DNA of 64,000 nt, from positions 1 through 64,000 of the forward strand of contig URFL01000003.1 of assembly GCA_900547105.1 (NCBI GenBank). The letters are read 5' to 3'. Position numbers and translations under genes: made by a program. This DNA comes from an uncultured Oscillospiraceae bacterium. GTDB taxonomy: Bacteria > Bacillota > Clostridia > Oscillospirales > Acutalibacteraceae. Of this stretch, positions 5,036 to 64,000 are shown one piece after another (position 1 is the first letter of the stretch; every line of letters starts with the position of its first letter). Under the pieces are notes generated by a model. That model was not told where the DNA came from. It did no database searches and worked only from the letters and a program-made list of their open reading frames with translations.

Positions 5036-6169
5036 ATGGCCGATAAACGCGATTATTACGAGGTGCTGGGCGTATCCAAGGGCGCTTCGGAAGATGAGAT
5101 CAAAAAAGCCTATCGTCAGGCGGCAAAAAAATACCACCCGGACTTGAACCCGGGCGACAAAGAGGCGGAAGTCCACTTCAAAGAGGTCAACGAGGCGTAT
5201 GAAGTGCTGTCCGACCCGCAGAAAAAAGCGCGCTATGACCAGTTCGGCCACGCGGGGGTGGATCCCAACTTCGGCGCGGGCGGTTACGGCGGCGCCGGTT
5301 TTGACGGCGAAGATTTCGACTTGGGCGACATCTTCTCCTCCTTCTTCGGCGGCGGCGGTCGCCGGCAGAACCCCAACGCGCCCCGCCGGGGCAGCGATGT
5401 GGGCGCCAGCGTGGTGATCTCGTTTGAAGAATCCGCGCGCGGTTGCAAAAAACAGGTGAATGTCCAGCTCGTCACCACCTGTGACGAGTGCGGCGGTTCG
5501 GGTGCCGCCAAAGGCACCTCCAGCCGTACCTGTGCCCAGTGCGGCGGCTCCGGTCAGGTGCGCACGCAGCAGCGCACGCCATTCGGCGTGGTGCAAACGC
5601 AAAGCGTGTGCCCGTCCTGCCACGGTCGCGGCAAAACCATCGACACCCCCTGCCGCAAGTGCAGCGGCTCGGGTCAGGTGCGCAAGCCCGCCACCATCGG
5701 CATCAACATCCCCGCCGGTATTGACGACGGACAGGTGATCTCCATCCGCGGCAAGGGCAACGCCGGGCAAAACGGCGGACCGGCGGGCGATCTGCAGGTG
5801 CAGGTGTCGGTGCGTCCGCATCCGCTGTTCGAGCGGCAAGGCTACGACATTTTGTGCGATCTGCCGCTGACCTATGCGCAGGTGGCGCTGGGCGCGGAGG
5901 TTTCGGTGCCCACGCTGGACGGCAAGGTACCCTACACCATCAAGGAGGGCACCCAACCGGGCGAAACCTTCCGCTTGAAAGGCAAGGGCTTCCCGTATAT
6001 CAACGGACGCGGGCGCGGCGATCTGCTGGTGCACGTCACGGTGGAGGTTCCCCGCAACCTGAACAGCGAGCAGAAAAAGCTGCTCAAATCGTTCGAGGAA
6101 TCCATGACCGACAGCAACTATCAAAAGCGCAAAAGCTTCTTTGACAAGATCAAGGATGCGTTCAAATAA
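5036..6169 (+). CDS. dnaJ: molecular chaperone DnaJ (Hsp40)
   Basis: J-domain ([17 protein letters not shown]), G/F-rich region, and four CxxCxGxG zinc-finger repeats. Confidence 0.97.
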
Positions 6170-6186
6170 GCACAAAACCGCCCCTC

Positions 6187-6226
6187 GGCTTTTACAGCCG
6201 GAGGGCGGTTTTTTCGGTCACAGCAG
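6187..6226 (+). terminator. rho-independent terminator of the dnaK operon
   Basis: ccgcccctcggc…gccggagggcgg stem followed by tttttt. Confidence 0.75.
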
Positions 6227-6469
6227 CTCCTGCTCGACCTGTTCATAGGCGGGCGTATCAAAAAATTCGATCAGCGTCATGTCCAGCCCGTCGCAAATCT
6301 TTTTCAGCGTCACCACGCCGGGGTTGCGGCTTTCGCCGTTTAAGATGCTTTTGATGGTAGATTGCGGAATCCCCGCCAAATAGCTGAGCGCGTTCGGCGT
6401 GATATGCCGCTGGCGGCACAGCTGGTAGATACGCTCCACCACAAATTCATAAATCGTCACAAGCGACAC
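6218..6469 (-). CDS. XRE-family helix-turn-helix transcriptional regulator (83 aa)
   Basis: HTH_XRE signature …ITPNALSYLAGIPQSTIKSILNGESRNPGVVTLKKICDGL…. Confidence 0.8.
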   Translation of the reverse strand: MSLVTIYEFVVERIYQLCRQRHITPNALSYLAGIPQSTIKSILNGESRNPGVVTLKKICDGLDMTLIEFFDTPAYEQVEQELL

Positions 6470-6545
6470 CTCCGCTTCATATTTTCGCCCTCATCATACG
6501 CCGCCCGCGCGGCGGGTGTTAGTGATACATCACTGGTCCGGCGTA

Positions 6546-6581
6546 CAAAAACACCCGCACACCGAAGGTGTACGGGTGTTT
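6546..6581. terminator. bidirectional hairpin terminating the tRNA-Thr transcript
   Basis: aaaa-acacccgcacacc-gaag-gtgtacgggtgt-ttt, with an A-run and T-run on the two sides. Confidence 0.7.
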
Positions 6582-6657
6582 TGGAGCTACCGATCCGATT
6601 CGAACGGACGACCTGCTCATTACGAGTGAGCTGCTCTACCTGCTGAGCCACGGTAGC
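6582..6657 (-). tRNA. tRNA-Thr, anticodon CGU
   Basis: Reverse complement is GCTACCGTGGCTCAGCAGGTAGAGCAGCTCACTCGTAATGAGCAGGTCGTCCGTTCGAATCGGATCGGTAGCTCCA. It folds as a cloverleaf: acceptor stem 7 bp, anticodon stem GCTCA/TGAGC, anticodon loop CTCGTAA giving anticodon CGT, T-loop TTCGAAT, encoded CCA. Confidence 0.9.
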
Positions 6658-34941: not shown

Positions 34942-37341
34942 TCACGGCTTTTTAAAATAAAGAAAGTCACTATATTCCGTTGTGTCAGTATTTCCGTTAG
35001 TGTGAGTATACACTTTTATCGTACAATTACCGTTGTTATCGTATGTATATTCCGTTTCACATATAGCGTCGTTAGAATACACACACACTTCTTTCACACG
35101 GTTTCCGTTATCATCATATTTGTACTCCGTCGCGTTCATAAAGCCGCTATACCCTGTACAAACTTCTTTTATACAGCTTCCTTTATTATCGTATGTGTAT
35201 CTCGTCGTACTTATGCCGCCACCAGCACCTGTAAATACTGCCTCCACACAATTTGCATTGTCATCATATTTGTATTCCGTTGTGCTTGAATAGTCTCTGG
35301 AATTCGCATACACTTCCTTTACACAATTTCCATTGCTATCGTATTCGTATTCCGTTGTGCTTGTATCTCCACTATACCCTGTACAGACTTCTTTCACGCA
35401 GTTTCCAGTATTATCATATTCGTACTCCGTTGTGCTTATATCACCATCAAAGGCCGTGTCAACTTTTTTCACACAATTTCCATTGTTATCGTATTTGTAT
35501 TCTGTCGTACTTATTCTACCATTATATTCCGTGTGTACTTCACATTGCGGCTTCGAAAGAATCGAGCGGTAATAGTTCACAGCATCCTTATAGCCGCCCG
35601 CTGCATAAAATTGAGCACGGGCTTCTCCGTACTTTCCGGCGTTGTATAACTCCATACCCGCATTATACTTGTAACTTGGAATAACGACTGTTGTCAGCAC
35701 AACAACAAGGGTAATGCAAGCAGCAATAATCGGCATCCCGATAGCAAAGAATTTTCTGCGCGCCTTTTTGGCTTTTTCCTCTTCTATTTTAATCTGCTCA
35801 ATCTTCTTTTGGCAGGCATACACCTGCTCATCCGCATCTTTCCAGCCAGAAATGGATTGAAACAACTCGATGGCTTCCTCATAAGCGCTGCTATCCTCGC
35901 CCACCATCTGTGACTTGGCCGAACCATATAGGGCATCTTTTCGACAGCACTCTGCTTTGTCGAAGCACTCCTCCGCAAGCTTCTTCGAATCTTTAAATTC
36001 TCCAACACTCTGAAAAGCCTGCGCAGCCGCTTTATACGCCTCCTCCGTATCGGCGGAATTCATGGCGTTGACCGCCCCGTTATATACATTGGTCAGTCGC
36101 TCATTTTCGTTACGTTGATTGATATACGCAATATAGTCGTTCATTGTTTTCGTCAAGGTGGGGTCGGCAAACCGCAACACCTTATGAAAATTGCTGCTTT
36201 TATCAAAGGGGTGTTTACAGTTCTTTAATTGCCCTTGCTCGCGCACACGCAGCTCCGCCATCAGTTTGCCCAAATACGCGCGCGCATTTTCCGGATCCTG
36301 ATCCAGCACTTTTTCACAATAGGCATCCGCCTCCTGCCAATCACCGTCTTCCAAAAACATAAAAACCCGTTTCAAAAGCGGTTCCACGCTTACATTACCG
36401 CTATCCATCACCACGGTTTCCTGAACCGTTTTCTTGGGCATATCCGCCGAAACAATTTTCTTAATTCCCCGAATCAAATCCTGCATAAACCCGAGTTTGG
36501 ACATATCTTGCGCCTGTAGATGAGAAAATTCTTCGGGCAAATCGTAAGGATCCATATCCTTGTAAGCGGGAATCAGCGTTTTTTTGCCGCCGCTGTTCTT
36601 CACCAATGCCAAATACCGGCTCCACTCGTTTTTCACCCAGACAGCATTAAAATACTCCGGCTTTGTACCCAGTACTACCATAACCTTTGCACTGTTAAGA
36701 GCAGCAAATATATACGGCTCATACGCCGTGCCCAGTTTGTCCTCCAAAGTGATGCGAGCAAAGAACACCTTGAAGCCTTCCTGCGTCAGCTGGTGGTACA
36801 TATCGTTGGCAAGCACACTGTCTTGGGTACGACGACCGCTAGCATCCGTTTCCTTGTAACAGATAAATATGTCAAAAGGTTGTTCTTTTTGAGAGATAGC
36901 CAAAATACCCTTTTGAATCTCGTTGATGGTTTGTGCTTCCGACTCGTAAATCTCTCGCTGAACAGCATCGGCATATCGTAGGGCAGATTTATAGTTATCA
37001 TCATCAAAGACCGATGTAAACTGCGCTCGATTTACCGTAGGTATACGCTTATGCGAACCCGGATCCTCCACATATTCAATACCATAGCGGCAAAGCACCA
37101 GAGACCAATACGCCTCGGCATCCGTCTTGTCCTCGGTCAGGATTTGCTCATATATCCCCATGGCTTTGTCATATTCATTGCTGCGCCGAAAATGATTGGC
37201 TCGATCATAAAGATTTGCCCGCCGATCATCATCCAATTTGGGCAAGGTTTGCTTGGTGCCGCAGCTGTCGCAAACAGCTACGGTGTCACCGGGGTGAAGT
37301 TCCAGTGTCCCTCCGCACATTTTGCATTTGAATACTGTCAT
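34942..37341 (-). CDS. multidomain TIR-domain protein: N-terminal zinc ribbon, TIR domain, TPR-like helical region, single TM helix, C-terminal YD-like tandem repeats (799 aa)
   Basis: Zinc ribbon MTVFKCKMCGGTLELHPGDTVAVCDSCGTKQTLP. TIR-like block FDIFICYKETDASGRRTQDSVLANDMYHQLTQEGFKVFFARITLEDKLGTAYEPYIFAALNSAKVMVVLGTKPEYFNAVWVKNEWSRYLAL. TPR-like region (…AYCEKVLDQDPENARAYLGKLMAELR…). TM helix FFAIGMPIIAACITLVVVLTTVVIP. About 7.5 repeats of around 25 aa (ISTTEYEYDNTGNCVKEVCTGYSGD), matching the YxYDxxGN YD-repeat core. RBS aaggag. Confidence 0.8.
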   Translation of the reverse strand: MTVFKCKMCGGTLELHPGDTVAVCDSCGTKQTLPKLDDDRRANLYDRANHFRRSNEYDKAMGIYEQILTEDKTDAEAYWSLVLCRYGIEYVEDPGSHKRIPTVNRAQFTSVFDDDNYKSALRYADAVQREIYESEAQTINEIQKGILAISQKEQPFDIFICYKETDASGRRTQDSVLANDMYHQLTQEGFKVFFARITLEDKLGTAYEPYIFAALNSAKVMVVLGTKPEYFNAVWVKNEWSRYLALVKNSGGKKTLIPAYKDMDPYDLPEEFSHLQAQDMSKLGFMQDLIRGIKKIVSADMPKKTVQETVVMDSGNVSVEPLLKRVFMFLEDGDWQEADAYCEKVLDQDPENARAYLGKLMAELRVREQGQLKNCKHPFDKSSNFHKVLRFADPTLTKTMNDYIAYINQRNENERLTNVYNGAVNAMNSADTEEAYKAAAQAFQSVGEFKDSKKLAEECFDKAECCRKDALYGSAKSQMVGEDSSAYEEAIELFQSISGWKDADEQVYACQKKIEQIKIEEEKAKKARRKFFAIGMPIIAACITLVVVLTTVVIPSYKYNAGMELYNAGKYGEARAQFYAAGGYKDAVNYYRSILSKPQCEVHTEYNGRISTTEYKYDNNGNCVKKVDTAFDGDISTTEYEYDNTGNCVKEVCTGYSGDTSTTEYEYDSNGNCVKEVYANSRDYSSTTEYKYDDNANCVEAVFTGAGGGISTTRYTYDNKGSCIKEVCTGYSGFMNATEYKYDDNGNRVKEVCVYSNDAICETEYTYDNNGNCTIKVYTHTNGNTDTTEYSDFLYFKKP
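34955..35545. repeat. 75-bp tandem DNA repeats encoding the YD-like repeats of the TIR protein
   Basis: Visible near-periodic repetition (…acacaatttccattgNtatcgtatttgtattcNgtcgtacttat…). Explains the spurious + strand ORFs at 35033-35684. Confidence 0.8.
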
Positions 37342-53357: not shown

Positions 53358-54404
53358 ATGAACACGCGCATGGTATCGCTTTTCACCGTGGCTGCACTGT
53401 GCCTGTCGCTGTGCGCCTGTGGCGGGCAACCTGGAACAGATGTGGAGCTTGGCGCCAGCCGCATGACCGAAACGGCGACGCTCCCTGTTTCCAAAACGGC
53501 AACCCTTTCCACAAACAATGCGGGAGCGACCACCGCCCCCTCCAAAAAGCCGGCACACCACACCACCCAACCCGTTGTCTCCACCCGCGCTATGGAAAGG
53601 TTACACCGCGGCAACAGCACGTGGCAAGAGGTTCCTATCGAAGACATGAAGTACATATCCTTATGGTGTTTTTGGACGTTTGATTTGCGAAAGGTCATTA
53701 CCTCCGCCGACTATGTTTTTAGCGGAACGATCCTCAGCCGCAAAGAATATGAAGTGTCTTTGCCGGATAAAAAAGGAGAATCTAACGGACCATATAGCCG
53801 GTCGATTCTCGAAGTGGAAATACACCATACATATCACGGAAAGCCACCGGTAAAAGGGAACATTATTCGTGTGTGTTACACCCATTCCGTATCGGAACAG
53901 ATCGGCAGCGCGCTGTCGATTGACGATAACGGAGAATATGTTTTTGTCACCTATGCGCTGAACGACAAGTACGCCAAAGAAATGAAGAAAAAATTTCCCG
54001 ACGGCTATGCAGAAGAGGAGTTGTATGCGGATGTCGCTTTCTCCACTCCTTTCTATGATCTGTTCGCTATCGAAGATGGAAAAGTGATTTCTTATGCCGG
54101 ATATTTTGACTGGGATAAAAAGGTGATGAAAAAAGCAACCTATCCCGTAAGATCGAACAAGATTGAACACGGGCGCAGCGGCGGTCCTTATATTGCGTTG
54201 TCCAAAAAAGACTTTGATACGGCGTTTGCCAACCTGTTCAAAAATCCGGAAACTTTGCCCACTGCCAGCACATGGGCGCACAACGACACCACCACGACCA
54301 CAACTACCACCCGCCAGACGAGCGCTGCCACAAAAGCGGGGCTGCCCACCGTGAACACCGACCCCACCATCGTGTGGTCAGACCCGGAGGACGGAGAGTC
54401 ATGA
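53358..54404 (+). CDS. hypothetical lipoprotein (348 aa)
   Basis: MNTRMVSLFTVAALCLSLCA-C lipobox. Promoter TTGAAA-17-TATATT at about 53295-53323, RBS aggagggg. C-terminal Thr-rich linker (TTTTTTTTRQT). Confidence 0.7.
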   Translation: MNTRMVSLFTVAALCLSLCACGGQPGTDVELGASRMTETATLPVSKTATLSTNNAGATTAPSKKPAHHTTQPVVSTRAMERLHRGNSTWQEVPIEDMKYISLWCFWTFDLRKVITSADYVFSGTILSRKEYEVSLPDKKGESNGPYSRSILEVEIHHTYHGKPPVKGNIIRVCYTHSVSEQIGSALSIDDNGEYVFVTYALNDKYAKEMKKKFPDGYAEEELYADVAFSTPFYDLFAIEDGKVISYAGYFDWDKKVMKKATYPVRSNKIEHGRSGGPYIALSKKDFDTAFANLFKNPETLPTASTWAHNDTTTTTTTTRQTSAATKAGLPTVNTDPTIVWSDPEDGES

Positions 54405-55249
54405 TGAAAAAGGAATGGCAAAGTGGGGGCTTGTGTCTGCTCATACTCGGCGGTTTGCTGGCGGGCTGTCTTAGCGGGTGCCGGTCAACCGAACCTCTTC
54501 CGAATAAGGTAACGACAACGAGTGTTCATACTGTGAGCACCACCGCAACAGCCCCCGTCGATACGATGACGAAAGCACCATTCAAAACCGAACCGGATCC
54601 AACAGGCTATGTAGATTTAGTTGACTCCGAAGACTGGCCTTGCCGCGAGTTTAATTCCGTGGAGGGTTTTATCCATTGGATTGAAAACCCTAACTTCAAA
54701 ATGGAAAAAAGTCCGCTTGAGCCGGAAAAAGATGAACATGGATACGACGTATATAAAAGAAGTTATTTTGATGCCCTGTATCCGGACTATCAACAGATGT
54801 TTGCGGTAGACCGGTTTTACATGCTGCCGGATGTGCCGTCTGATTGGGAGTTAACAGATATACAGATAAGAAGTCATAATACCGACTTTTATTATCTGGA
54901 TAATCAAAAAAACGAATATTATCTATCCTATAATTATTCCGAATCCTCCCATAATCTCAATAGTGTTGAAAGTTCAGAGTTTTTTGCTTTTAAAAAAATA
55001 TTAAACGATCAAGAATATTATGTTATAGATTTTGATCTACAAGCAGTAGCCCAAAAGAAGGGCAGTTTTATTTTTACTCTTGTAAATGGTTATCTCTGCG
55101 AATTTGCTATGCAAACATATAATCCGGACGAAAAAGATTCCGCTACAGAAGGATATGAACGGGTTGTTTACAGTGAGAATACGGATTTAACGGATGTTGT
55201 CAGCAAGATGAAATTTAAGCGGATCGATTTACCCCCACTGAAACAGTAG
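54401..55249 (+). CDS. hypothetical lipoprotein (282 aa), AT-richer than its surroundings
   Basis: MMKKEWQSGGLCLLILGGLLAGCLSGC lipobox. ATGA overlap with the upstream lipoprotein gene. Confidence 0.65.
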   Translation: MMKKEWQSGGLCLLILGGLLAGCLSGCRSTEPLPNKVTTTSVHTVSTTATAPVDTMTKAPFKTEPDPTGYVDLVDSEDWPCREFNSVEGFIHWIENPNFKMEKSPLEPEKDEHGYDVYKRSYFDALYPDYQQMFAVDRFYMLPDVPSDWELTDIQIRSHNTDFYYLDNQKNEYYLSYNYSESSHNLNSVESSEFFAFKKILNDQEYYVIDFDLQAVAQKKGSFIFTLVNGYLCEFAMQTYNPDEKDSATEGYERVVYSENTDLTDVVSKMKFKRIDLPPLKQ

Positions 55250-55264
55250 AAGCAAAAAGCCAGC

Positions 55265-55323
55265 ACAAAAGCCGACGGCGTTTTGGTCGCGAATAGCTTT
55301 GGCTGGCTTTTTCCTTTGGCGGC
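55265..55323 (+). terminator. probable terminator (compound hairpin)
   Basis: aaaagccagc…gctggcttttt with inner stems. Confidence 0.5.
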
Positions 55324-55375
55324 GGCATCGATCCGCCCGGCAGCGGGTCGTAACAATTTTTTTACAAATATTTCC

Positions 55376-55404
55376 TTGCGCTTTGGGCGGAAAAGGAGTA
55401 TAGT
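55376..55404 (+). promoter_or_regulatory. sigma-A promoter of htpG (TTGCGC-17-TATAGT)
   Basis: Positioned so the transcription start falls at the CIRCE element. Confidence 0.55.
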
Positions 55405-55408
55405 AGCG

Positions 55409-55435
55409 TTAGCACTCGAAGCGAGCGAGTGCTAA
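55409..55435 (+). promoter_or_regulatory. CIRCE operator upstream of htpG
   Basis: TTAGCACTC-gaagcgagc-GAGTGCTAA is a perfect CIRCE consensus. Confidence 0.93.
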
Positions 55436-55460
55436 AACATCGTAAAGAGGGAAAATCGTC

Positions 55461-57341
55461 ATGAGAACCAAACAATTCAAAGCCGAATCCAAGCGGTTGC
55501 TGGATCTGATGATCCATTCTATCTATACCCATAAAGAAATCTTTCTGCGCGAGCTGATCTCCAACGCCAGCGACGCGATGGACAAGCTGTACTACCGCTC
55601 GCTGAAAGAGCATTTGCAGGATGTGGATCGCGAAGATTTTGCCATCGACATTGCGGTGGACAAAGAGCACCGCACCCTGACCATTTGGGATACCGGCATC
55701 GGCATGACCGAAGAGGAGCTGGAAAACAACCTCGGCGTGATCGCCAAGAGCGGCTCGTTTGCTTTCAAAAATGAGCAGGAGGAGAAAACCGACGATGTGG
55801 ACATCATCGGTCAGTTTGGCGTGGGCTTTTATTCCGCGTTCATGGTGAGCGATCTGGTCACAGTCGTCACCCGCGCCTACGGCAGCGACCAGGCGTATCG
55901 CTGGGAATCCAAAGGGGTCGAGGGCTACACGGTGGAGCCGTGCGAAAAAGACAGCGTCGGCACCCAGATCATTTTGCATATCAAAGAGAACACCGAAGAC
56001 GAAAACTACGACGAATTTTTGGACAGCTACCGTTTGCAGGGGCTGATCAAAAAATATTCCGACTACATCCGCTACCCCATCCGCATGGATGTGGAATCCC
56101 GCCGTCCGGTCGAGGGCAAAGAGGGCGAGTACGAAACCGTCACCGAGACCAAAACCATCAACAGCATGGTACCGATCTGGCGCAAAAACAAAAGCGAGAT
56201 CCAGCCGGAGGAATACAACGCCTTTTACAAGGATAAATTCATGGATTACGAGGATCCGGCGCGGGTCATCCACAGCCGCACCGAGGGCGCGGCCACCTAT
56301 CAGGCGCTGTTGTTCATCCCGTCCCACGCGCCGTACAACTACTACACCCGCGAATACGAAAAGGGCTTGCAGCTGTACGCCAGCGGCGTGCTGATCATGG
56401 ACAAATGTGCCGATCTGCTGCCCGACCATTACAGCTTTGTCAAAGGTTTGGTCGATTCGCAGGATCTGTCGCTGAACATCTCGCGCGAGATGCTGCAGCA
56501 CGATCGCCAGCTGAAGCTGATCGCCGCGCGACTGGAGAAAAAGATCCACAGCGAGCTGCTCTCCATGCTGCAAAACGAGCGCGAAACCTATGAAACCTTC
56601 TTCAAAAACTTCGGCTTGCAGTTGAAATACGGCGTATACAGCGATTTCGGAATGCACAAGGATGAGCTGCAGGATCTGCTGCTGTTCTATTCGTCCCACG
56701 AAAAGAAGCTGACCACGCTGCAGGAATACATCGACCGTATGCCGGAAGGACAGCCCTGCATCTACTACGCGTGCGGCGAAACGCCGGACAAGATCGAGCG
56801 GATGCCACAAACCGAGGCGGTACGCGACAAGGGCTACGAGATCTTGTATCTGACCGACGATGTGGACGAATTCGCGCTGAAATCGCTGCACACCTTTGCG
56901 GACAAGGAGTTCAAATCCGTGTCCGGCGGTGATTTGGGCTTTGAGCCGGAAAAGGCGGAAGAATCCACCGAAAACAAAGACCTGTTCGCCTTTATGGCGG
57001 AGGCGCTGTCCGGCAAGGTGAAAGCGGTGCGCGGGTCGCAGCGGCTGAAAACCCACCCGGTTTGTCTGACCGCCGAGGGCGAAGTGTCGCTGGAGATGGA
57101 AAAGGTGCTGGATGCGATGCCGGGTGACCACGCGATCAAAGCCCAGCGGGTGCTGGAGATCAACGAAGCGCACCCCATCTTCCAAAAGCTGACCGCGCTG
57201 TACCAAAACGACAAAGACGAGCTGAAAGAATACAGCGAGCTGCTGTACGATCAGGCGGCGCTGATGGAGGGGCTGTCGATCGACGATCCGGTGGCGTTTG
57301 CCGAAAAAGTGTGCAAGCTGATGGCGCAGGATAACGCATGA
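55461..57341 (+). CDS. htpG: molecular chaperone HtpG (Hsp90)
   Basis: …[15 protein letters not shown]… (GHKL N-terminal motif). 626 aa. Confidence 0.96.
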
Positions 57342-57826
57342 CCGGGCGCTGGCTGTTTCGGGTGCTGTCGCTGATGGCGGTGCTCGGCTGGATGGCGGTG
57401 ATCTTCTGGTTTTCCGCCCAAACGGCGGACGACTCCGCCGCCATGAGCGGCGGGCTGATCGAACAGGTCGCGGGCGCGATCACACCGGGGTTTTCCGAGC
57501 TGCCGACCGAGCAGCAAACCGCGGTGGTGAACCAATGGCAAACGGTGGTGCGCAAGGGCGCGCATATGACCGAATACGCTGTTTTGGGCGTGCTTTGCTG
57601 GATCGCCGCGACCGGTTGGTTCCCGCGGCGGCGGATACGCGCGGCGGTGGCTGCCGGTGTGGGGCTGCTGTACGCCGCAAGCGACGAATTTCACCAGCGG
57701 TTTGTGCCGGGACGCGGTCCCGGTGTGCTGGATGTGGGCATCGACTTCACCGGTGTGTGCATCGGGCTAGCGCTGGCAGCGGGCGTGACCGCGCTGTGGC
57801 GCCGGTATCGCCGCAAACGAGCATAA
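57338..57826 (+). CDS. VanZ-like family membrane protein
   Basis: Overlaps the htpG stop. About 4 TM segments and the DExHQ-type motif (…[13 protein letters not shown]…) typical of VanZ-like proteins. Confidence 0.7.
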
Positions 57827-57828
57827 GC

Positions 57829-57866
57829 AAAGGGCTGTTCCCCGCGGGGAACAGCCCTTTTTGCGT
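57829..57866 (+). terminator. rho-independent terminator
   Basis: aagggctgttccccgcggggaacagcccttttt. Confidence 0.85.
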
Positions 57867-57946
57867 GTGACCATAGAGTGTCACCATAGACAACCCGCGG
57901 CACGGCGTGTATAATAAATCTGATTTTGTGTAACGGAGGGGTTGGC

Positions 57947-60040
57947 ATGAGCATCATCGCCCGCGACAACCGTATTTTTGTGTTGGAAACCGCCCACACC
58001 CATTATGTGGTGGGTATCGACGCCGACGGACGCGACCGACATATCTACTGGGGCGCGCCCTGTGACCCCGCCGACTACGACATTCCGCCGGTGGTGTGCG
58101 AAAACCCCAATCATCCGGCGCTGGACGAAATGCAGCAGGAATGTACCGTGTTCGGCTCCACCATGTACCGCGACAGTGTGCTGAAAGCGACCTTTGCCGA
58201 CGGCTGCCGCGAAATTTTGCCGATCTTTGACAGCGCCGAGGTAGGCGACGACCGGTTGGCGCTGCGGTTTTGCGATGAGCACTATGGCTTGTCGTATACC
58301 CTCCACTACCGGCTGTTTCCGGACAGCGACATCATCGAAAAATATGTGTCGGTGCAAAACACCGGCACCGAACCGCTGGTGTTCGACCGCCTGTTCAGCG
58401 GCGAGCTGACCTTTCCCTCGCCGGAGGTGTATATCATCCAAAACACCAACGGCGGCTGGGGCGGCGAATATCGCCCCACCCAAACGCCGCTGTCCGGCGG
58501 CACGCTGGTGTTTGAAAGCCGCCGGGGCATTTCCGGTCACAACCAGTCGCCCTCGGTCATTGCGCATCACCACGCGACCGAACAGGCGGGCGAGGTCTTT
58601 TTCGCCGTGTTGGCGTACAGCGGCAGCTTCAAGGTGAGTGTCAACCGCGATGTGTACGGCGTGACCCGCGCGGTGCTGGGGATGAACGACCACGATTTTT
58701 CCTTTACGCTGCCCGCTGGGCAACCGTTTGACACCCCTCGCCTGTACGCGGGTCACACCCGCGGGCTGGGCGAAATGTCCCGCCAGCTCAACCGGCTGGC
58801 GCTGACCCATCTGCTGCCTCCGGCGTTTCGGGACAAGCCGCTGCCGGTGCTGTACAATTCGTGGGAAGCCACCGGCTTTGACGTATCCTCGCAGCAGCAG
58901 ATGCAGCTGGCGGACATCGCCGCCGATCTGGGGGTGGAGCTGTTTGTGATGGACGACGGCTGGTTTGGCGCACGCCACAACGACCACGCCGGGCTGGGCG
59001 ATTGGCAGGTCAACCGCAACAAATTCCCCCACGGCTTAAACGAGCTGATCGACCATGTGCATCGGCGCGGCATGGGGTTCGGCCTGTGGATCGAGCCGGA
59101 AATGGTGAACCCGGACAGCGACCTGTACCGCGCCCACCCCGATTGGGCGTATCACTACCCGACCCGACCCGCCAGCGAGCTGCGGAATCAGCTGGTGCTG
59201 AATCTGACCCGCCCCGATGTGCAGCAATATGTGTTTGAGGCGGTGGACGCGCTGTTGAGCGAGCAGGATATTCAGTATATCAAATGGGATATGAACCGCC
59301 CGTTTTCCGAAACCGGAGCGGAAAATCTGGACAACCCGCAAATGTTGTACTATCTGCACACCAAGGCGGTGTACGACATTGTGGACGCACTGAAAGCCAA
59401 GCATCCCGGCGTGATGTTTGAAAGCTGTGCATCCGGAGGCGGGCGCAGCGATTGGGGCGCGCTGTCGCATTTTGACCAGTGCTGGCCCAGCGACAACACC
59501 GATGCCATCGACCGCATGGCGATCCAGCACGATTTTTCGCTGCTGCACCCCACCAAGGTGATGCGCGCGTGGGTCACGGATATTGCGGGCCCCAACAAAC
59601 CGTGCAGTCTGGAATTCCGGTTCCACATCGCGATGCAAGGCGCGTTGGGGTTGGGCGGCAATCTGACCCGCTACACCCCTGCACAGCGGGAGCTTTGCCG
59701 CCAGCGTATCGCGCTGTACAAGCAAATACGCGAGGCGGTGCAGTTTGGCGATCTGTACCGACTGGCGGACGCGGACGAGGGCGAGGTGCTGATCAACGAG
59801 TATGTCAGCCGCGACAAAACGCAAGCGGTCTGCTTCGTGTCCAGTCGGGGAACGCGCTTTTTCAAAAAGCGGATGCCGATCCGGCTGGCGGGGCTGGTGC
59901 CCAACCGCCGCTACCGTCTGGAATTTCAAGGAACCACCTTGAAAAAAAGCGGCGCCTATTGGCAAAATGTCGGACTTTCGGTGTACATCCGCGGCGCAGA
60001 GTATAACGAGATCATCTTCCTCTGCCAAACCGCCCTCTGA
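57947..60040 (+). CDS. alpha-galactosidase, GH36 family
   Basis: …LELFVMDDGWFG… and …KWDMNR… GH36 motifs, length about 700 aa. RBS ggagggg. Confidence 0.9.
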   Translation: MSIIARDNRIFVLETAHTHYVVGIDADGRDRHIYWGAPCDPADYDIPPVVCENPNHPALDEMQQECTVFGSTMYRDSVLKATFADGCREILPIFDSAEVGDDRLALRFCDEHYGLSYTLHYRLFPDSDIIEKYVSVQNTGTEPLVFDRLFSGELTFPSPEVYIIQNTNGGWGGEYRPTQTPLSGGTLVFESRRGISGHNQSPSVIAHHHATEQAGEVFFAVLAYSGSFKVSVNRDVYGVTRAVLGMNDHDFSFTLPAGQPFDTPRLYAGHTRGLGEMSRQLNRLALTHLLPPAFRDKPLPVLYNSWEATGFDVSSQQQMQLADIAADLGVELFVMDDGWFGARHNDHAGLGDWQVNRNKFPHGLNELIDHVHRRGMGFGLWIEPEMVNPDSDLYRAHPDWAYHYPTRPASELRNQLVLNLTRPDVQQYVFEAVDALLSEQDIQYIKWDMNRPFSETGAENLDNPQMLYYLHTKAVYDIVDALKAKHPGVMFESCASGGGRSDWGALSHFDQCWPSDNTDAIDRMAIQHDFSLLHPTKVMRAWVTDIAGPNKPCSLEFRFHIAMQGALGLGGNLTRYTPAQRELCRQRIALYKQIREAVQFGDLYRLADADEGEVLINEYVSRDKTQAVCFVSSRGTRFFKKRMPIRLAGLVPNRRYRLEFQGTTLKKSGAYWQNVGLSVYIRGAEYNEIIFLCQTAL

Positions 60041-60048
60041 TCGACAGG

Positions 60049-60089
60049 AAAACAGCCCGAGTCACCTCGCGAGGTGACTCGGGCTGTTT
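60049..60089. terminator. strong bidirectional hairpin
   Basis: aaacagcccgagtcacctcgcgaggtgactcgggctgttt is an 18-bp stem. Confidence 0.7.
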
Positions 60090-60127
60090 GGCGTATGTGT
60101 TTATTTTACAAATTCAAAATGTCTTTG

Positions 60128-60670
60128 TTATTTCCCGCTATCGGGGGACAGGGAGATGGGGTCTTTGTCGCGGGTCCAATAGTCGTGCCCTTTTTCCTTC
60201 GGCTGCCACAAGGTGGATTTTGTTCCCATCTCAAACGGGAAGATCAACAACAACGGCGTTTTATCTTCCATAGCCCACTGTATTAGTTCCTTAAAAATAG
60301 TAAAATATCCTCTACCACTGCGCGGAGCCACCCATGGTTGTGCCAGATTGTTGTTTTCCTCTCCGGGAATCACTTCCCATGGGATCGGCAAAGACAGGTT
60401 TTGGATATCGTAAACCGCCTCGGACAAGGAATGCTTTTGCAGCTCGAGCGGAATCTGATCCAGCTCCCGCTGAAGCTCTTGCAAATGTTCGTTTTCTACG
60501 ATGCCGTGATCGCACAAATCGCGCAGCAGCCGCGGGAACCGCTCCCCCCAATGCCCTACCCCTTCCAGATGATAGGACACCGTAGAAAAGAAGCAATAAA
60601 CCATATCGCCCCATCCGATCCTGCTAATAAACCCCGCGCGCCCCTTTTTTTGCACCATAAGATACACCAT
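60128..60670 (-). CDS. hypothetical protein, paralog 1 of a 180-aa family (immunity-protein-like)
   Basis: MVYLMVQKKGRAGFISRIGWGDMVYCFFSTVSYHLEGVGHWGERFPRLLRDLCDHGIVENEHLQELQRELDQIP…LLLIFPFEMGTKSTLWQPKEKGHDYWTRDKDPISLSPDSGK. About 75% identical to 61487..62038. The 5' and 3' DNA ends are near-identical between the two. Confidence 0.7.
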   Translation of the reverse strand: MVYLMVQKKGRAGFISRIGWGDMVYCFFSTVSYHLEGVGHWGERFPRLLRDLCDHGIVENEHLQELQRELDQIPLELQKHSLSEAVYDIQNLSLPIPWEVIPGEENNNLAQPWVAPRSGRGYFTIFKELIQWAMEDKTPLLLIFPFEMGTKSTLWQPKEKGHDYWTRDKDPISLSPDSGK

Positions 60671-60689
60671 AATGGTTCCTCCTAATCGA

Positions 60690-61415
60690 TCACATTTCGC
60701 GCGAATAAATATTGACGGTATCGCGATCCAAATCCGGCTTAAAACAGATCAGCAGGTTCACATCCTGTGGCTGAAGCAAATCGAAGTGGTCGTTAGGTTT
60801 CATGATTTCATAGCACTTTTTCGCAATCTCATCGCGGTTATCCAGCAGACGGCGATAGCCTCGCTCGGTATCCGCCACAATAGTGATCGATGGTTCGTAC
60901 CGCACCATAATGCGCCATATGCCGTCCATTCCAAACGATTGTTGAAAATAGGTGCGTATGGCGGGCATGGATATACTATAAAGCCGTGCCATAAAGGAAC
61001 TCACAAAATCATACATATACAAATCAACGGTTTCCAACGCGTCTCGCGAATAGTGAAATGCATCCAAAAACACTTGCGTGACATCCTCGGCAAATGCGTT
61101 CAGCGATTCACTTGCATGCCTGACCAATTTGTTTAACGGCAGATCGCTGCTATTTACAAGGGCGTTTAACTCCTTTGCAACGGCGCAAGTATTCCCTTCA
61201 AAGTCCACATACACCGATATAGCTGCTCGCCGGTTATATATGGAAAGGTCTGTAAAAACTGCATTCAGTCCATATTTCGTGCGTATTTCGGTGACAAAAT
61301 TACGCTCTTGCACCCCATAATACACCACGCCGGAATGAAATATTTCAGCAAACTTACTATATTGAGAATAGCGCCCATTAAACGCATTGGAATATTCTCG
61401 CATAGCCATTGCCAT
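60690..61415 (-). CDS. hypothetical protein (241 aa) between the two paralogs
   Basis: ORF MAMAMREYSNAFNGRYSQYSKFAEIFHSGVVYYGVQ…. No domain recognised. Confidence 0.55.
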   Translation of the reverse strand: MAMAMREYSNAFNGRYSQYSKFAEIFHSGVVYYGVQERNFVTEIRTKYGLNAVFTDLSIYNRRAAISVYVDFEGNTCAVAKELNALVNSSDLPLNKLVRHASESLNAFAEDVTQVFLDAFHYSRDALETVDLYMYDFVSSFMARLYSISMPAIRTYFQQSFGMDGIWRIMVRYEPSITIVADTERGYRRLLDNRDEIAKKCYEIMKPNDHFDLLQPQDVNLLICFKPDLDRDTVNIYSREM

Positions 61416-61486
61416 TCCTCCTGCTTATCCGTCAATGTTTCTTGCGGACGTTGTATGTTTTTTCACAACTCCAAAGCGTATTTTCG

Positions 61487-62038
61487 TTATTTCCCGCTAT
61501 CGGGGGACAGGGAAATGGGGTCTTTGTCGCGGGTCCAATAGTCGTGCCCTTTTTCCTTCGGCTGCCACAAGGTGGATTTTGTCCCCATCTCAAACGGGAA
61601 GATCAGCAGCAACGGAGCCTCCTCATTGATAGCCTGCTGTATTTGTTCCCTAAAGACGGTAAAATACCAACTGTCGCCGCGCGGCGTTACCCACGGCTGC
61701 GCCAGGTTAATGTCTTCCTCCCCAGACTCCTTGGGAATTTCTTCCCACGGGATTGGCAAAGACAGGTTTTGGATATCATAAATCGCCTCGGACACAGGAT
61801 ATTTTTGAAGCTCCCGCGGAATCTGATCCAGTTCCCGCTGGAGCTCTTGCAAATGTTCATTTTCTACGATACCGTGATCGCACAGATCGCGCAGCAGCCG
61901 CGGGAACCGCTCTCCCCAATGTCCTACCCCTTCCAGATGATAGGACACCGTGGAAAAAAAGCAATAAACCATATTGCCCCAGCCCAGTCTAACAATATAC
62001 CCTGCATCTCCCGGCTTTTTCACCATAAGATAAACCAT
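61487..62038 (-). CDS. hypothetical protein, paralog 2 of the 180-aa family
   Basis: MVYLMVKKPGDAGYIVRLGWGNMVYCFFSTVSYHLEGVGHWGERFPRLLRDLCDHGIVENEHLQELQRELDQIP… Same C-terminal 30 aa as paralog 1. Confidence 0.7.
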   Translation of the reverse strand: MVYLMVKKPGDAGYIVRLGWGNMVYCFFSTVSYHLEGVGHWGERFPRLLRDLCDHGIVENEHLQELQRELDQIPRELQKYPVSEAIYDIQNLSLPIPWEEIPKESGEEDINLAQPWVTPRGDSWYFTVFREQIQQAINEEAPLLLIFPFEMGTKSTLWQPKEKGHDYWTRDKDPISLSPDSGK

Positions 62039-62127
62039 AGTTTCTACCCCTATTTATACATAAACTCAACAAGATCTCACTTCTCTATCTCTAGCACAGC
62101 GCTTTTCAACCGCGCCGCCTCTTTTCG

Positions 62128-62721
62128 CTATTTATATGAAACATAGTTGTCCTCTCGAATTTGTTGTTTCACATACGGCTGCAAATCCACGGGCACGGTG
62201 TCCACATAAACCGCATATACGACCGTATCCCCCCACGCATACGCGCCTATCTCCGCGACCGCCTCGTCATGAACAGAGCGGCGATAGCTTCCCACACGAT
62301 TCTCCGTCGTGATGGCGGCATAGTGTGGTCGGTCGCTGAAAAAGCTCCCAACCGACGCCCGACCGGGGTCCTCGGCACGATCAAATTGCGTCAACAGCGC
62401 CGCTTCAAACGCCTCGTGGTCGGTTTTGTCCACCTCGATGATGGCTTGCGTAAACGAATCCCGCCATCCCTGAACGCAATCCACCTCGGTCAATACCGCC
62501 GCTTCCTGCGTCGGTAGATGAATCGACTGCAAAACCAGCTGCCGATCCGCGTCGCTAAACGCGGTCACGACGATCCCAGCCTCAACCTGCTCGGACAGAC
62601 GAACATACCGATATAGATGGACACCCAACACGCCTGTCAACGCCAAAACCGACACCGCCACTACCGCGCCGATGATGATTCCCGCTTTCTTTCGCCTCGA
62701 TAGATTTTTCCACATACGCAT
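62128..62721 (-). CDS. signal-anchored hypothetical protein, paralog a (197 aa)
   Basis: MRMWKNLSRRKKAGIIIGAVVAVSVLALTG… N-terminal TM anchor plus an extracytoplasmic domain. Confidence 0.65.
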   Translation of the reverse strand: MRMWKNLSRRKKAGIIIGAVVAVSVLALTGVLGVHLYRYVRLSEQVEAGIVVTAFSDADRQLVLQSIHLPTQEAAVLTEVDCVQGWRDSFTQAIIEVDKTDHEAFEAALLTQFDRAEDPGRASVGSFFSDRPHYAAITTENRVGSYRRSVHDEAVAEIGAYAWGDTVVYAVYVDTVPVDLQPYVKQQIREDNYVSYK

Positions 62722-62742
62722 AGGTGCTTTCCTCTTTTCACA

Positions 62743-63312
62743 TCATCCGTCGCGTTTGAGATAGTTTCCTTTCCAAACCCGCCACCACACAAAATGCTTC
62801 AAATCCGACGGAACATCCTCCGTGCGAACCACATACAGCATCGTATCTTCCAAGCGGAACGACTCAATCGTGAGCTGTTTCTGCTGCGAGTGGACATATC
62901 TCCCCACACAATCGCTTGCTGTAAGAGAGGCATATTCCGTGTGGTCGAAAAACCCGCTTTGCGAGGCATACCCCGGCTCGTCCGTCCGCTCATAATGTTC
63001 CAGCAGGGCAGTTTCAAAGGCTTCGTTTTTGTCCTTGTCCACCTCCACATATAGATAGGCATACGGTTCCCGAAAACTCTCCACATCCACTATTTCGGTC
63101 AATGTGGCGGGCTCTTGCAGCGGAATATCAAACGCCCGAAACGCCGTTTCCCGCTCGTCATTGCCAATGGTTTGAATCCGAACGCCGCTGTCCAATGTCA
63201 CCGGAAGCTGCACCAGCAGCCGGTACAAAAACGCCCCGGCAACCACCACCGCTACCGCACCGATGATGATTCCTGCCTTTTTGGGCTTTGATAGATTTTT
63301 CCACACGCGCAT
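62743..63312 (-). CDS. signal-anchored hypothetical protein, paralog b (189 aa)
   Basis: MRVWKNLSKPKKAGIIIGAVAVVVAGAFLY… Same architecture and a similar N-terminus to 62128..62721. Confidence 0.65.
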   Translation of the reverse strand: MRVWKNLSKPKKAGIIIGAVAVVVAGAFLYRLLVQLPVTLDSGVRIQTIGNDERETAFRAFDIPLQEPATLTEIVDVESFREPYAYLYVEVDKDKNEAFETALLEHYERTDEPGYASQSGFFDHTEYASLTASDCVGRYVHSQQKQLTIESFRLEDTMLYVVRTEDVPSDLKHFVWWRVWKGNYLKRDG

Positions 63313-63333
63313 AGGCGTTGATGTCCTTTCTAT

Positions 63334-63666
63334 TCACAAGTGCGATTCGTTACGCACTGCGTAGGCACCGTCCAACTCCCGCACCAGACGGTCATAAGCC
63401 GCTCCTGCCCGCACCGCAAAGTCAGTCTGGTGTTCCTTTGTCCATGGTGAGGGTGCCGCCGGATCGCTCCAATCCAGCGAGGTTTGAAACTCGGTTTCCA
63501 GCGCATTCAACTCATCCGCCAACGCGCGGGAGATAGGGAGCGCGGTTTTGTCCACCGCATAGCCCAGTGCAGCTTCCGTGGCTGCATCACCCGCCCACAA
63601 GCAGGGGCCCCCATATTCAAAAAAGAAACGCAACACACGCATGGGCGTTTGCCCCCCTGTTTGCAC
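63334..63666 (-). CDS. hypothetical protein (110 aa)
   Basis: ORF MQTGGQTPMRVLRFFFEYGGPCLWAGDAATEAALGYAVDKTALPIS… tightly spaced with the preceding paralogs. Confidence 0.5.
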   Translation of the reverse strand: MQTGGQTPMRVLRFFFEYGGPCLWAGDAATEAALGYAVDKTALPISRALADELNALETEFQTSLDWSDPAAPSPWTKEHQTDFAVRAGAAYDRLVRELDGAYAVRNESHL

Positions 63667-64000
63667 TCTAATGGATTCCGCGGCTGTTCTCTTGCTATTT
63701 TAACACAAATTTGCCGGAGCGTCTATCGGCTATATCCGCAAATTTGGCACACATATTTTGTCGTTATTTGCAAAAAAGTGCCGACCCACTTTTCGCCGCA
63801 AACACACCCCGTCCCCCTGTCACGCAACGAAGAATCTGTTCCGGTGGGTCAGATGAAAAGAGGAACAACGCGAACCACTTTGTAAGGTGGCTCGCGCTGT
63901 TTTTGTGTGTATTTATTCTTTTATGGCCGCCACCGTCCAATAGTAGTCAGTAGCTTCACCACTTTTATCAAATATTTTTCCCGAAAACTGATACACCGGT

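Follow-up and report, generated by a model that had tools for sequence, protein, structure and literature searches.

A strain-variable array of predicted immunity genes beside a polymorphic-toxin-type gene in an uncultured gut bacterium of the Clostridia

Near the end of a 64,000-nucleotide (nt) stretch of DNA from an uncultured Oscillospiraceae bacterium (positions 1 to 64,000 of contig URFL01000003.1 in assembly GCA_900547105.1; the whole stretch is called the window here), six small open reading frames (ORFs), g1 to g6, lie one behind another on the minus strand between 60128 and 63666, and the question raised by this locus is what such a series of genes is for. A preliminary description, drawn up from the letters of the window, had proposed a cluster of immunity genes or orphan cassettes, typical of polymorphic toxins or of contact-dependent inhibition systems. 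The first part of that proposal is supported here, since g1 and g3 belong to the Imm70 family, and homologs of g4/g5 and of g2 are found directly 3' of toxin-like C-terminal domains; contact-dependent inhibition was not indicated. We consider it probable, with good confidence, that the six genes constitute a heterogeneous polyimmunity array, in which orphan immunity genes predominate, and that this array occupies the 3' end of a chromosomal polymorphic-toxin locus in an uncultured human-gut bacterium of the Clostridia. The genes, with lengths in amino acids (aa), are as follows.

g1: 60128-60670, minus strand; 180 aa, Imm70-family predicted cytoplasmic immunity protein
g2: 60690-61409 (ORF to 61415, 241 aa), minus strand; 239 aa, predicted cytoplasmic, tiny unannotated family; predicted immunity protein against the WFSHDP domain (see below)
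g3: 61487-62038, minus strand; 183 aa, second Imm70 paralog
g4: 62128-62721, minus strand; 197 aa, membrane-anchored, predicted outward-facing alpha/beta domain; predicted orphan immunity protein against the WELHHGG domain (see below)
g5: 62743-63312, minus strand; 189 aa, paralog of g4 with the same membrane anchor
g6: 63334-63642 (ORF to 63666, 110 aa), minus strand; 102 aa, predicted cytoplasmic, unannotated family; predicted immunity domain

A compact array with two Imm70 members

All six genes, described earlier as tightly packed and of lower guanine-cytosine (GC) content, were recovered in the ORF listing of the 64-kb window; they represent four unrelated families in a single orientation, and the gaps between them, read from g1 to g6, are 19, 71, 89, 21 and 21 nt. 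The GC content, about 0.60 in the flanking DNA, drops at position 60000 to 0.43-0.55 in the array, and taken gene by gene it is 0.45-0.59 in the array against 0.58-0.61 in the flanking genes. The two pairs that had been pointed out as paralogs, those beginning at 60128/61487 and at 62128/62743, are indeed paralogous. In BLASTP comparison g1 and g3 are 83% identical (E 2e-115), and g4 and g5 are 37% identical (E 6e-33), with the alignment of the latter pair displaying the common N-terminus MR[MV]WKNLS..KKAGIIIGAV that had been noticed as a shared anchor. Judging from the gene calls on identical contigs and the alignments of homologs, a start at 63642 (102 aa) is more likely for g6 than one at 63666, and similarly a start at 61409 or 61403 (239 or 237 aa) is more likely for g2 than one at 61415.

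The products of g1 and g3 are members of the Pfam family Imm70 (PF15601). The match of g1 scores 67.1 bits (E 1.6e-18) and covers positions 6-129 of the 131-position model, and that of g3 scores 62.1 bits (E 5.6e-17) and covers positions 8-128, where the Pfam gathering cut-off is 26.7 bits. Imm70, an immunity family of the alpha+beta class, was linked to Tox-REase-10 nucleases by Zhang et al. (2012, PMC3482391). No Tox-REase-10 gene stands beside the copies described here; because there is no toxin gene within the array or the 20-kb locus, g1 and g3 are orphan copies. None of the six proteins matched a housekeeping family in Pfam, and none had any match in NCBIfam or PADLOC. The ratio dN/dS lies between 0.13 and 0.38 overall in comparisons between paralogs and alleles (0.16 for g1 and g3, with dS 0.53; 0.19 for the g1 alleles; 0.38 for g4 and g5; 0.30 for g4 orthologs), which indicates real genes under purifying selection and argues for a maintained function.

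The toxin-type neighbour and the variation between strains

The preliminary description had advised looking past position 64000 for a toxin of the RHS, LXG or WXG100 type. Contig L002 is 100% identical to positions 55001-64000 of the window and hence extends it, and a gene of the polymorphic-toxin type is present there, although its domains are none of those three. The gene (L002 5552-8464, or ~64849-67761 in extended window coordinates) encodes a protein of 970 aa with a Sec signal, a DNRLRE/CBM96 domain, a Ricin-type lectin domain, a Big_2 domain and a C-terminal DUF6345 domain. In the order of transcription, the 970-aa gene is followed by the gene for a 304-aa lipoprotein (LTAC lipobox; complete in contigs L001-L004) and then by g6, and past the 970-aa gene lie the housekeeping genes pgm, smpB, recR, ybaB and dnaX. 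From its position, the lipoprotein is a candidate for the cognate immunity protein of the DUF6345 domain.

The signature that defines polymorphic toxins combines a conserved scaffold and a sharp junction with exchange of the C-terminal domain, or tip, and of the downstream genes (Zhang et al. 2012). Such a comparison is provided by contig L096, from a strain that shows about 94% identity in the flanks and has the same pgm...vanZ-htpG site. Its protein L096_435 matches the 970-aa protein at 93% identity over residues 524-707, i.e. over the Ricin and Big_2 domains, up to the segment '...ATAKYTV' and is unrelated from there on. The C-terminal region of L096_435, of ~250 aa, is unrelated to DUF6345, the tip of the form common in the window's species; next to it come a different gene, of 155 aa, and a g4 ortholog (88% identity). 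Because the scaffold is kept, the junction is sharp, and both the tip and the downstream genes have been swapped, the 970-aa gene bears the polymorphic-toxin signature, and by its sequence it is a polymorphic-toxin-type gene. Fragments of the Ricin/Big_2 scaffold are also found on orphan cassettes in the loci L087, L085 and L100. A kinship of the 155-aa protein of L096 (L096_155) with L085_145 or L089_170 was considered and rejected, there being no match by hidden Markov model (HMM) or phmmer.

Strict conservation of the array is not observed, and its content differs between strains. In 19 of the 24 long contigs the g3+g2 segment (60671-62112) is replaced by ~600 bp encoding an unrelated 176-aa membrane-anchored protein, with breakpoints at the start codon of g1 and just past the stop of g4 and with flanks that are 100% and 96.9% identical. 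The gene g1 is found in all strain variants, with the window allele 90% identical in amino acids to the commoner one (53 contigs for the window allele against 296 for another allele). Exact matches to the proteins of g4 to g6 occur on 335-358 contigs, and to those of g2 and g3 on 60-66; in the case of g5, the exact protein is found on hundreds of human-gut metagenome contigs. The toxin gene itself varies, in that codon 52 reads TAG instead of CAG in L002 (5705-5707) and in L003, two independent assemblies, while it is intact in L001. This nonsense change, Q52*, splits the signal peptide from the remaining 909-aa ORF. Since it is present in the contig identical to the window, the window strain is probably without a secreted toxin and nonetheless keeps the array, a state of defence without offence, and the L002-type and L003-type arrangements make up 9 of the 24 contigs read.

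These observations bear on whether the genes could be functionless relics of earlier toxin modules, as might be thought from the lack of a partner toxin in the locus, the interruption of the main toxin gene in the window strain, and the loss of most of the array from L096, which is without g5, g6, Imm70 and the GH36 gene and retains a 76-nt remnant of the 3' end of Imm70. All six ORFs are intact, however, their exact protein sequences recur on hundreds of contigs, and the dN/dS values indicate purifying selection, so that we regard decay as an unlikely account of the array.

Relatives of the other genes beside toxin-like domains

The g4/g5 family is small, with 11 proteins found by a HMMER profile of g4 and g5 among 1.84 billion representatives and with 5 clusters among 5.8 billion proteins. 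As basic residues precede the hydrophobic helix, the positive-inside rule suggests an N-in, C-out topology with an outward-facing domain. In four independent loci (L086, L087, which equals L088, L091 and L094), the family member starts 11-25 nt past the stop codon of a gene that ends in a C-terminal domain of ~240 aa; an invariant motif in this domain gives it the name WELHHGG used here. Between the loci the domain shows 39-64% identity, and in L086 and L087 it sits after a Big_2 domain, that of L087 sharing 52% identity with the Big_2 of the 970-aa protein. Searches with the WELHHGG domain gave no match in Pfam, NCBIfam or the PDB (PDB sequence and profile searches returned chance-level matches only). 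In L085 an Ntox44 cassette (PF15607, E 2.2e-15) precedes the g4/g5 member, which is the second gene past it; the ORF of the cassette opens with a Ricin QxW tail, 'ADDQQWQFEK', comparable to 'ANDQQWAFEK' in the 970-aa protein. As a separate and suggestive observation, L095 carries at 6001-6652 a 45-aa remnant of the 3' end of WELHHGG, with stop codons before it and a 171-aa membrane-protein or lipoprotein gene ('AFRDPSV') after it; this protein, L095_171, was undetected by the g4/g5 profile.

The close coupling of 11-25 nt to the WELHHGG gene and the membrane anchor might also be expected if proteins of the g4/g5 family were helpers in the export or activation of the WELHHGG domain, i.e. a membrane chaperone or a release factor, instead of inhibitors. 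A helper would have no use once its toxin is missing, yet purifying selection acts on g4 and g5 where WELHHGG is absent, and in L085 and L096 members come second behind a different toxin/immunity pair, as expected of retained immunity genes; a helper role thus seems to us very improbable.

The family of g2 comprises only 3 clusters among the 5.8 billion proteins. In L099 the g2 homolog P0008 starts 28 nt after the end of the gene for a protein with a C-terminal domain here called WFSHDP, and is itself followed by a g6 homolog (45% identity); the WFSHDP protein, which is cut, shows a Big_2 end, then a module with 35% identity to the L096 tip, and the final WFSHDP domain. Similarly, in L100 the g2 homolog P0007 starts 58 nt after a WFSHDP domain, and behind P0007 a new scaffold fragment with Ricin QxW begins. 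A third homolog lies in the array of L089. No match to g2 was found in Pfam, NCBIfam, PADLOC, PHROGs or the PDB, where the PDB matches were at chance level. The converse arrangement, in which g2 would be the toxin cassette and g1 its immunity gene, was also considered and rejected: g2 has no Pfam toxin match, the L089 homolog closes its array, with the next gene on the opposite strand, and the g2 homologs of L099 and L100 themselves come after a toxin tip.

For g6 the family forms one cluster only in the 5.8 billion proteins, and the link is made by a domain fusion. The array of L089, which belongs to another organism, consists of a g4/g5 homolog, a 209-aa protein and the g2 homolog, in that order, and the 209-aa protein (L089_209) has an N-terminal half 51% identical to g6 and a C-terminal half 59% identical to the 133-aa protein L087_133. 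The latter is encoded by a putative immunity gene that shares 4 nt with the end of an orphan toxin cassette (L087 1640-3095). This cassette follows the WELHHGG/immunity pair, is preceded by a duplicated, frameshifted fragment of the Ricin-end/Big_2 scaffold, and encodes an alternative C-terminal domain, the last segment of which is WFSHDP-like. Fused immunity domains have been described as 'polyimmunity proteins' (Zhang et al. 2012, PMC3482391). The relatives tie members of the array to toxin genes by the family definition in the case of Imm70, by four loci for g4/g5 and by two loci for g2, and for g6 the tie is an indirect one, through the fusion. No match to g4, g5 or g6 was found in Pfam, NCBIfam, PADLOC or PHROGs.

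The array adjoins the gene for a large protein, and g4, g5 and the lipoprotein would be fixed by a membrane or lipid anchor on the outer side of the cell, the presumed site of action of the large protein, so that the small proteins might be its accessory, maturation or anchoring partners, for instance in a glycan-binding protease complex. The transcription signals, which are consensus matches only, and the other features around the array are relevant here.

g3+g2 strain-variable cassette: 60671-62112; from blastn of the window against contigs L001-L004
Promoter-like site 5' of g6: 63697-63725, minus strand; consensus scan, 9/12 matches plus extended TG
Terminator-like hairpin of 15 pairs plus T-run, just 3' of the lipoprotein gene: 63864-63901, minus strand
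3' end of the lipoprotein gene: last 28 codons 63916-63999, stop 63913-63915, minus strand; tblastn, 100% identity over 28 aa
Perfect palindrome of 20+20 nt without a loop, between g1 and the convergent GH36 alpha-galactosidase gene: 60050-60089

With a terminator-like hairpin after the lipoprotein gene and a promoter-like site before g6, the array probably forms its own transcript, running from g6 to g1, and the palindrome is likely a bidirectional terminator that marks the end of the array. These signals weigh against accessory partners. In addition, g1 and g3 are Imm70, the relatives of g4/g5 and g2 elsewhere follow C-terminal domains other than DUF6345, the composition of the array differs among strains with the same large protein, and the array genes stay conserved in strains with a premature stop in the large gene. 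On these grounds we give the accessory-partner explanation very little credence.

The preliminary description had found no toxin gene in the window, and this is borne out. No copy of WELHHGG, WFSHDP, Ntox44 or the L096 tip was found by tblastn in the window or in the same-species 20-kb loci, save for the shared scaffold, and the gaps within the array are too short for cassettes, so that it is uninterrupted by toxin genes. Pfam scans of the other large ORFs of the window gave housekeeping proteins and one protein with TPR, TIR and RHS-repeat domains, with no toxin tip among them. This last protein (34942-37341, minus strand; 799 aa, TPR repeats, TIR_2 with E 2e-11, RHS repeats, no recognisable C-terminal toxin domain) had been brought into connection with the array as a YD-repeat protein carrying TIR; the protein exists as described, but nothing connects it to the array, and it may be a defence or NADase-type protein. 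Its presence, the lower GC, the strain variability and the match of Imm70 to a PHROG family of unknown function could be taken as signs of an anti-phage defence or toxin-antitoxin island or of a prophage remnant, which is highly doubtful given that none of the six proteins has a PADLOC match at E up to 1, that no integrase, recombinase, phage or mobile-element gene lies within 20 kb, that neither the region nor the toxin tips have a match in plasmid or phage collections, that no intracellular toxin partner gene stands within the array, and that the homologs neighbour secreted multi-domain proteins and not defence systems. No tmRNA or tRNA integration site was found near smpB in L002. As to relatives of the host, an Imm70-based scan of species genomes gave none that could be confirmed, and among the matches listed in a GH36-based scan the identity reached at most 65% over a partial match and 63% over the full length (Ca. 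Fimenecus, Acutalibacteraceae and other Clostridia metagenome-assembled genomes).

Elsewhere in the window, a second low-GC patch (0.40-0.53) holds two overlapping genes of 348 and 282 aa without a Pfam match (53358-55249, plus strand), the lengths of which vary by strain (337 and 284 aa in L001 and L004), and this may be another variable islet, between a thiamine-pyrophosphate (TPP)-enzyme gene and htpG. The sole Rfam match at the gathering threshold in the whole window is a tRNA gene at 6585-6657 on the minus strand.

Under the polyimmunity reading, which we prefer, a pathway for the growth of the array can be envisioned in which a new tip arrives with its own immunity gene and displaces the old tip, while the old immunity gene stays downstream, and further cassettes would be gained or lost by recombination. 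The array would then guard against toxins still made by neighbours, with each product binding and neutralising one incoming toxin domain. The predicted cytoplasmic products of g1, g2, g3 and g6 would neutralise toxins that reach the cytoplasm, with g1 and g3 acting against nucleases of the Tox-REase-10 type and g2 against the WFSHDP domain, and g4 and g5, with the outward orientation predicted for them, would counter the WELHHGG domain at the cell envelope.

Several points weigh against this reading. WELHHGG and WFSHDP have no recognised toxin fold and no Pfam family, and their label as toxins comes from architecture and context. DUF6345 is not an established toxin domain; its segments 'LMLFVGHG' and 'WVAAYTCNF' (domain at about residues 780-942) resemble by eye the His-Gly/Cys dyad of clan-CD (caspase/gingipain-like) peptidases, while PDB sequence searches with the 970-aa protein and its C-terminal domain gave chance-level matches only and no support for that likeness. 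Instead of an antibacterial toxin, the large protein could be a lectin or a protease of the cell surface. Structure lends no support either, in that the model of g5 has no significant structural neighbour (PDB sequence searches with g1 and g5 also gave chance-level matches only), and that of g2 is poor, with a predicted local distance difference test (pLDDT) value of 61 and generic alpha/beta matches only. The proteins g1 and g3 match PHROG phrog_21948 (unknown function, E ~1e-19), so that Imm70 relatives are also found in phages. The orphan status was established over the window plus ~10 kb, and most of the supporting contigs are short metagenome fragments (1-12 kb) with the upstream genes cut.

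A wider proposal, which we hold tentatively and as falling slightly short of an even chance, is that the locus represents an undescribed family of Sec-secreted polymorphic toxins on a lectin scaffold (DNRLRE/CBM96-Ricin-Big_2), which would comprise WELHHGG, WFSHDP and perhaps further new tips along with three new families of immunity proteins, that g4/g5 are membrane-anchored, outward-facing inhibitors, and that the window strain is 'shield-only', with the toxin interrupted by Q52* and the array kept by selection. If this is true, the outward orientation of g4 and g5 would imply that the WELHHGG tip attacks the Gram-positive envelope from outside. The locus offers pairs that can be tested, the WELHHGG tip with g4/g5 and the WFSHDP tip with g2. 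It also offers a scaffold with lectin domains for Sec-dependent delivery, and in the window strain what seems to be a natural case of a weapon given up while a variable set of shields is kept. Annotation of these families would improve the metagenomic profiling of antagonism and of competition at the strain level, all the more as the toxin/immunity systems of the abundant Gram-positive gut anaerobes are poorly charted compared with the type VI secretion systems (T6SS) of Bacteroidales and the type VII secretion systems (T7SS) of Bacilli.

Comparison with known systems

The kind of locus is known, while g4/g5, g2, g6, both tips and the lectin scaffold are undescribed in the libraries searched. 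The acquired interbacterial defence (AID) clusters of gut Bacteroidales are found in Gram-negative bacteria, act against T6SS effectors and are often carried on mobile elements with recombinases. Like them, the array presents predicted orphan immunity genes in human-gut bacteria, directed against the toxins of neighbours (see also PMC10470768, PMC12247911). Unlike them, it belongs to a Gram-positive-type host of the Clostridia and has no recombinase or mobile-element gene within 20 kb.

WapA/WapI of Bacillus subtilis is a Sec-dependent polymorphic toxin/immunity system of Gram-positive bacteria. The 970-aa protein has in common with toxins of the WapA type the Sec signal and N-terminal DNRLRE, the variable C-terminal domain (here a putative toxin), the downstream immunity gene (here a candidate) and the orphan C-terminal modules; the N-terminus of WapA in Streptococcus suis (WapA-CT1/CT2) likewise has a Sec signal and a DNRLRE module (PMC12704120). 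It differs in having neither RHS repeats (no Pfam RHS_repeat match), nor a LysM domain, nor a sortase partner, and in its Ricin and Big_2 scaffold with a DUF6345 tip.

Arrays of immunity genes are built by sequential effector displacement in the T6SS clusters of Vibrio cholerae, as reported in PMC5361080, and recombination between tandem immunity paralogues is reported for T7SS loci of firmicutes (PMC9484751). The array is alike in that old immunity genes would be retained after a tip swap and that the tandem paralogs g1/g3 and g4/g5 can recombine, giving strain-specific arrays. It is unlike them in that no parts of a T6SS or T7SS were seen in the window or the neighbouring sequence and that the putative toxin has a Sec signal and lectin domains, and for the array the displacement history is a proposed one.

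A further comparison is with the polyimmunity loci catalogued by Zhang, de Souza, Anantharaman, Iyer and Aravind (2012, PMC3482391), which were read as protection against non-kin toxins and in which orphan immunity copies without an adjoining toxin gene are allowed. The array departs from those loci in that four of its six genes come from families absent from that catalogue and from Pfam, and in that it is small (six genes) and lies directly downstream of an active-type toxin locus instead of standing alone. It agrees with them in being a tandem, co-oriented series of unrelated small genes that includes Imm70, in having no toxin gene between its members and in varying among closely related strains.

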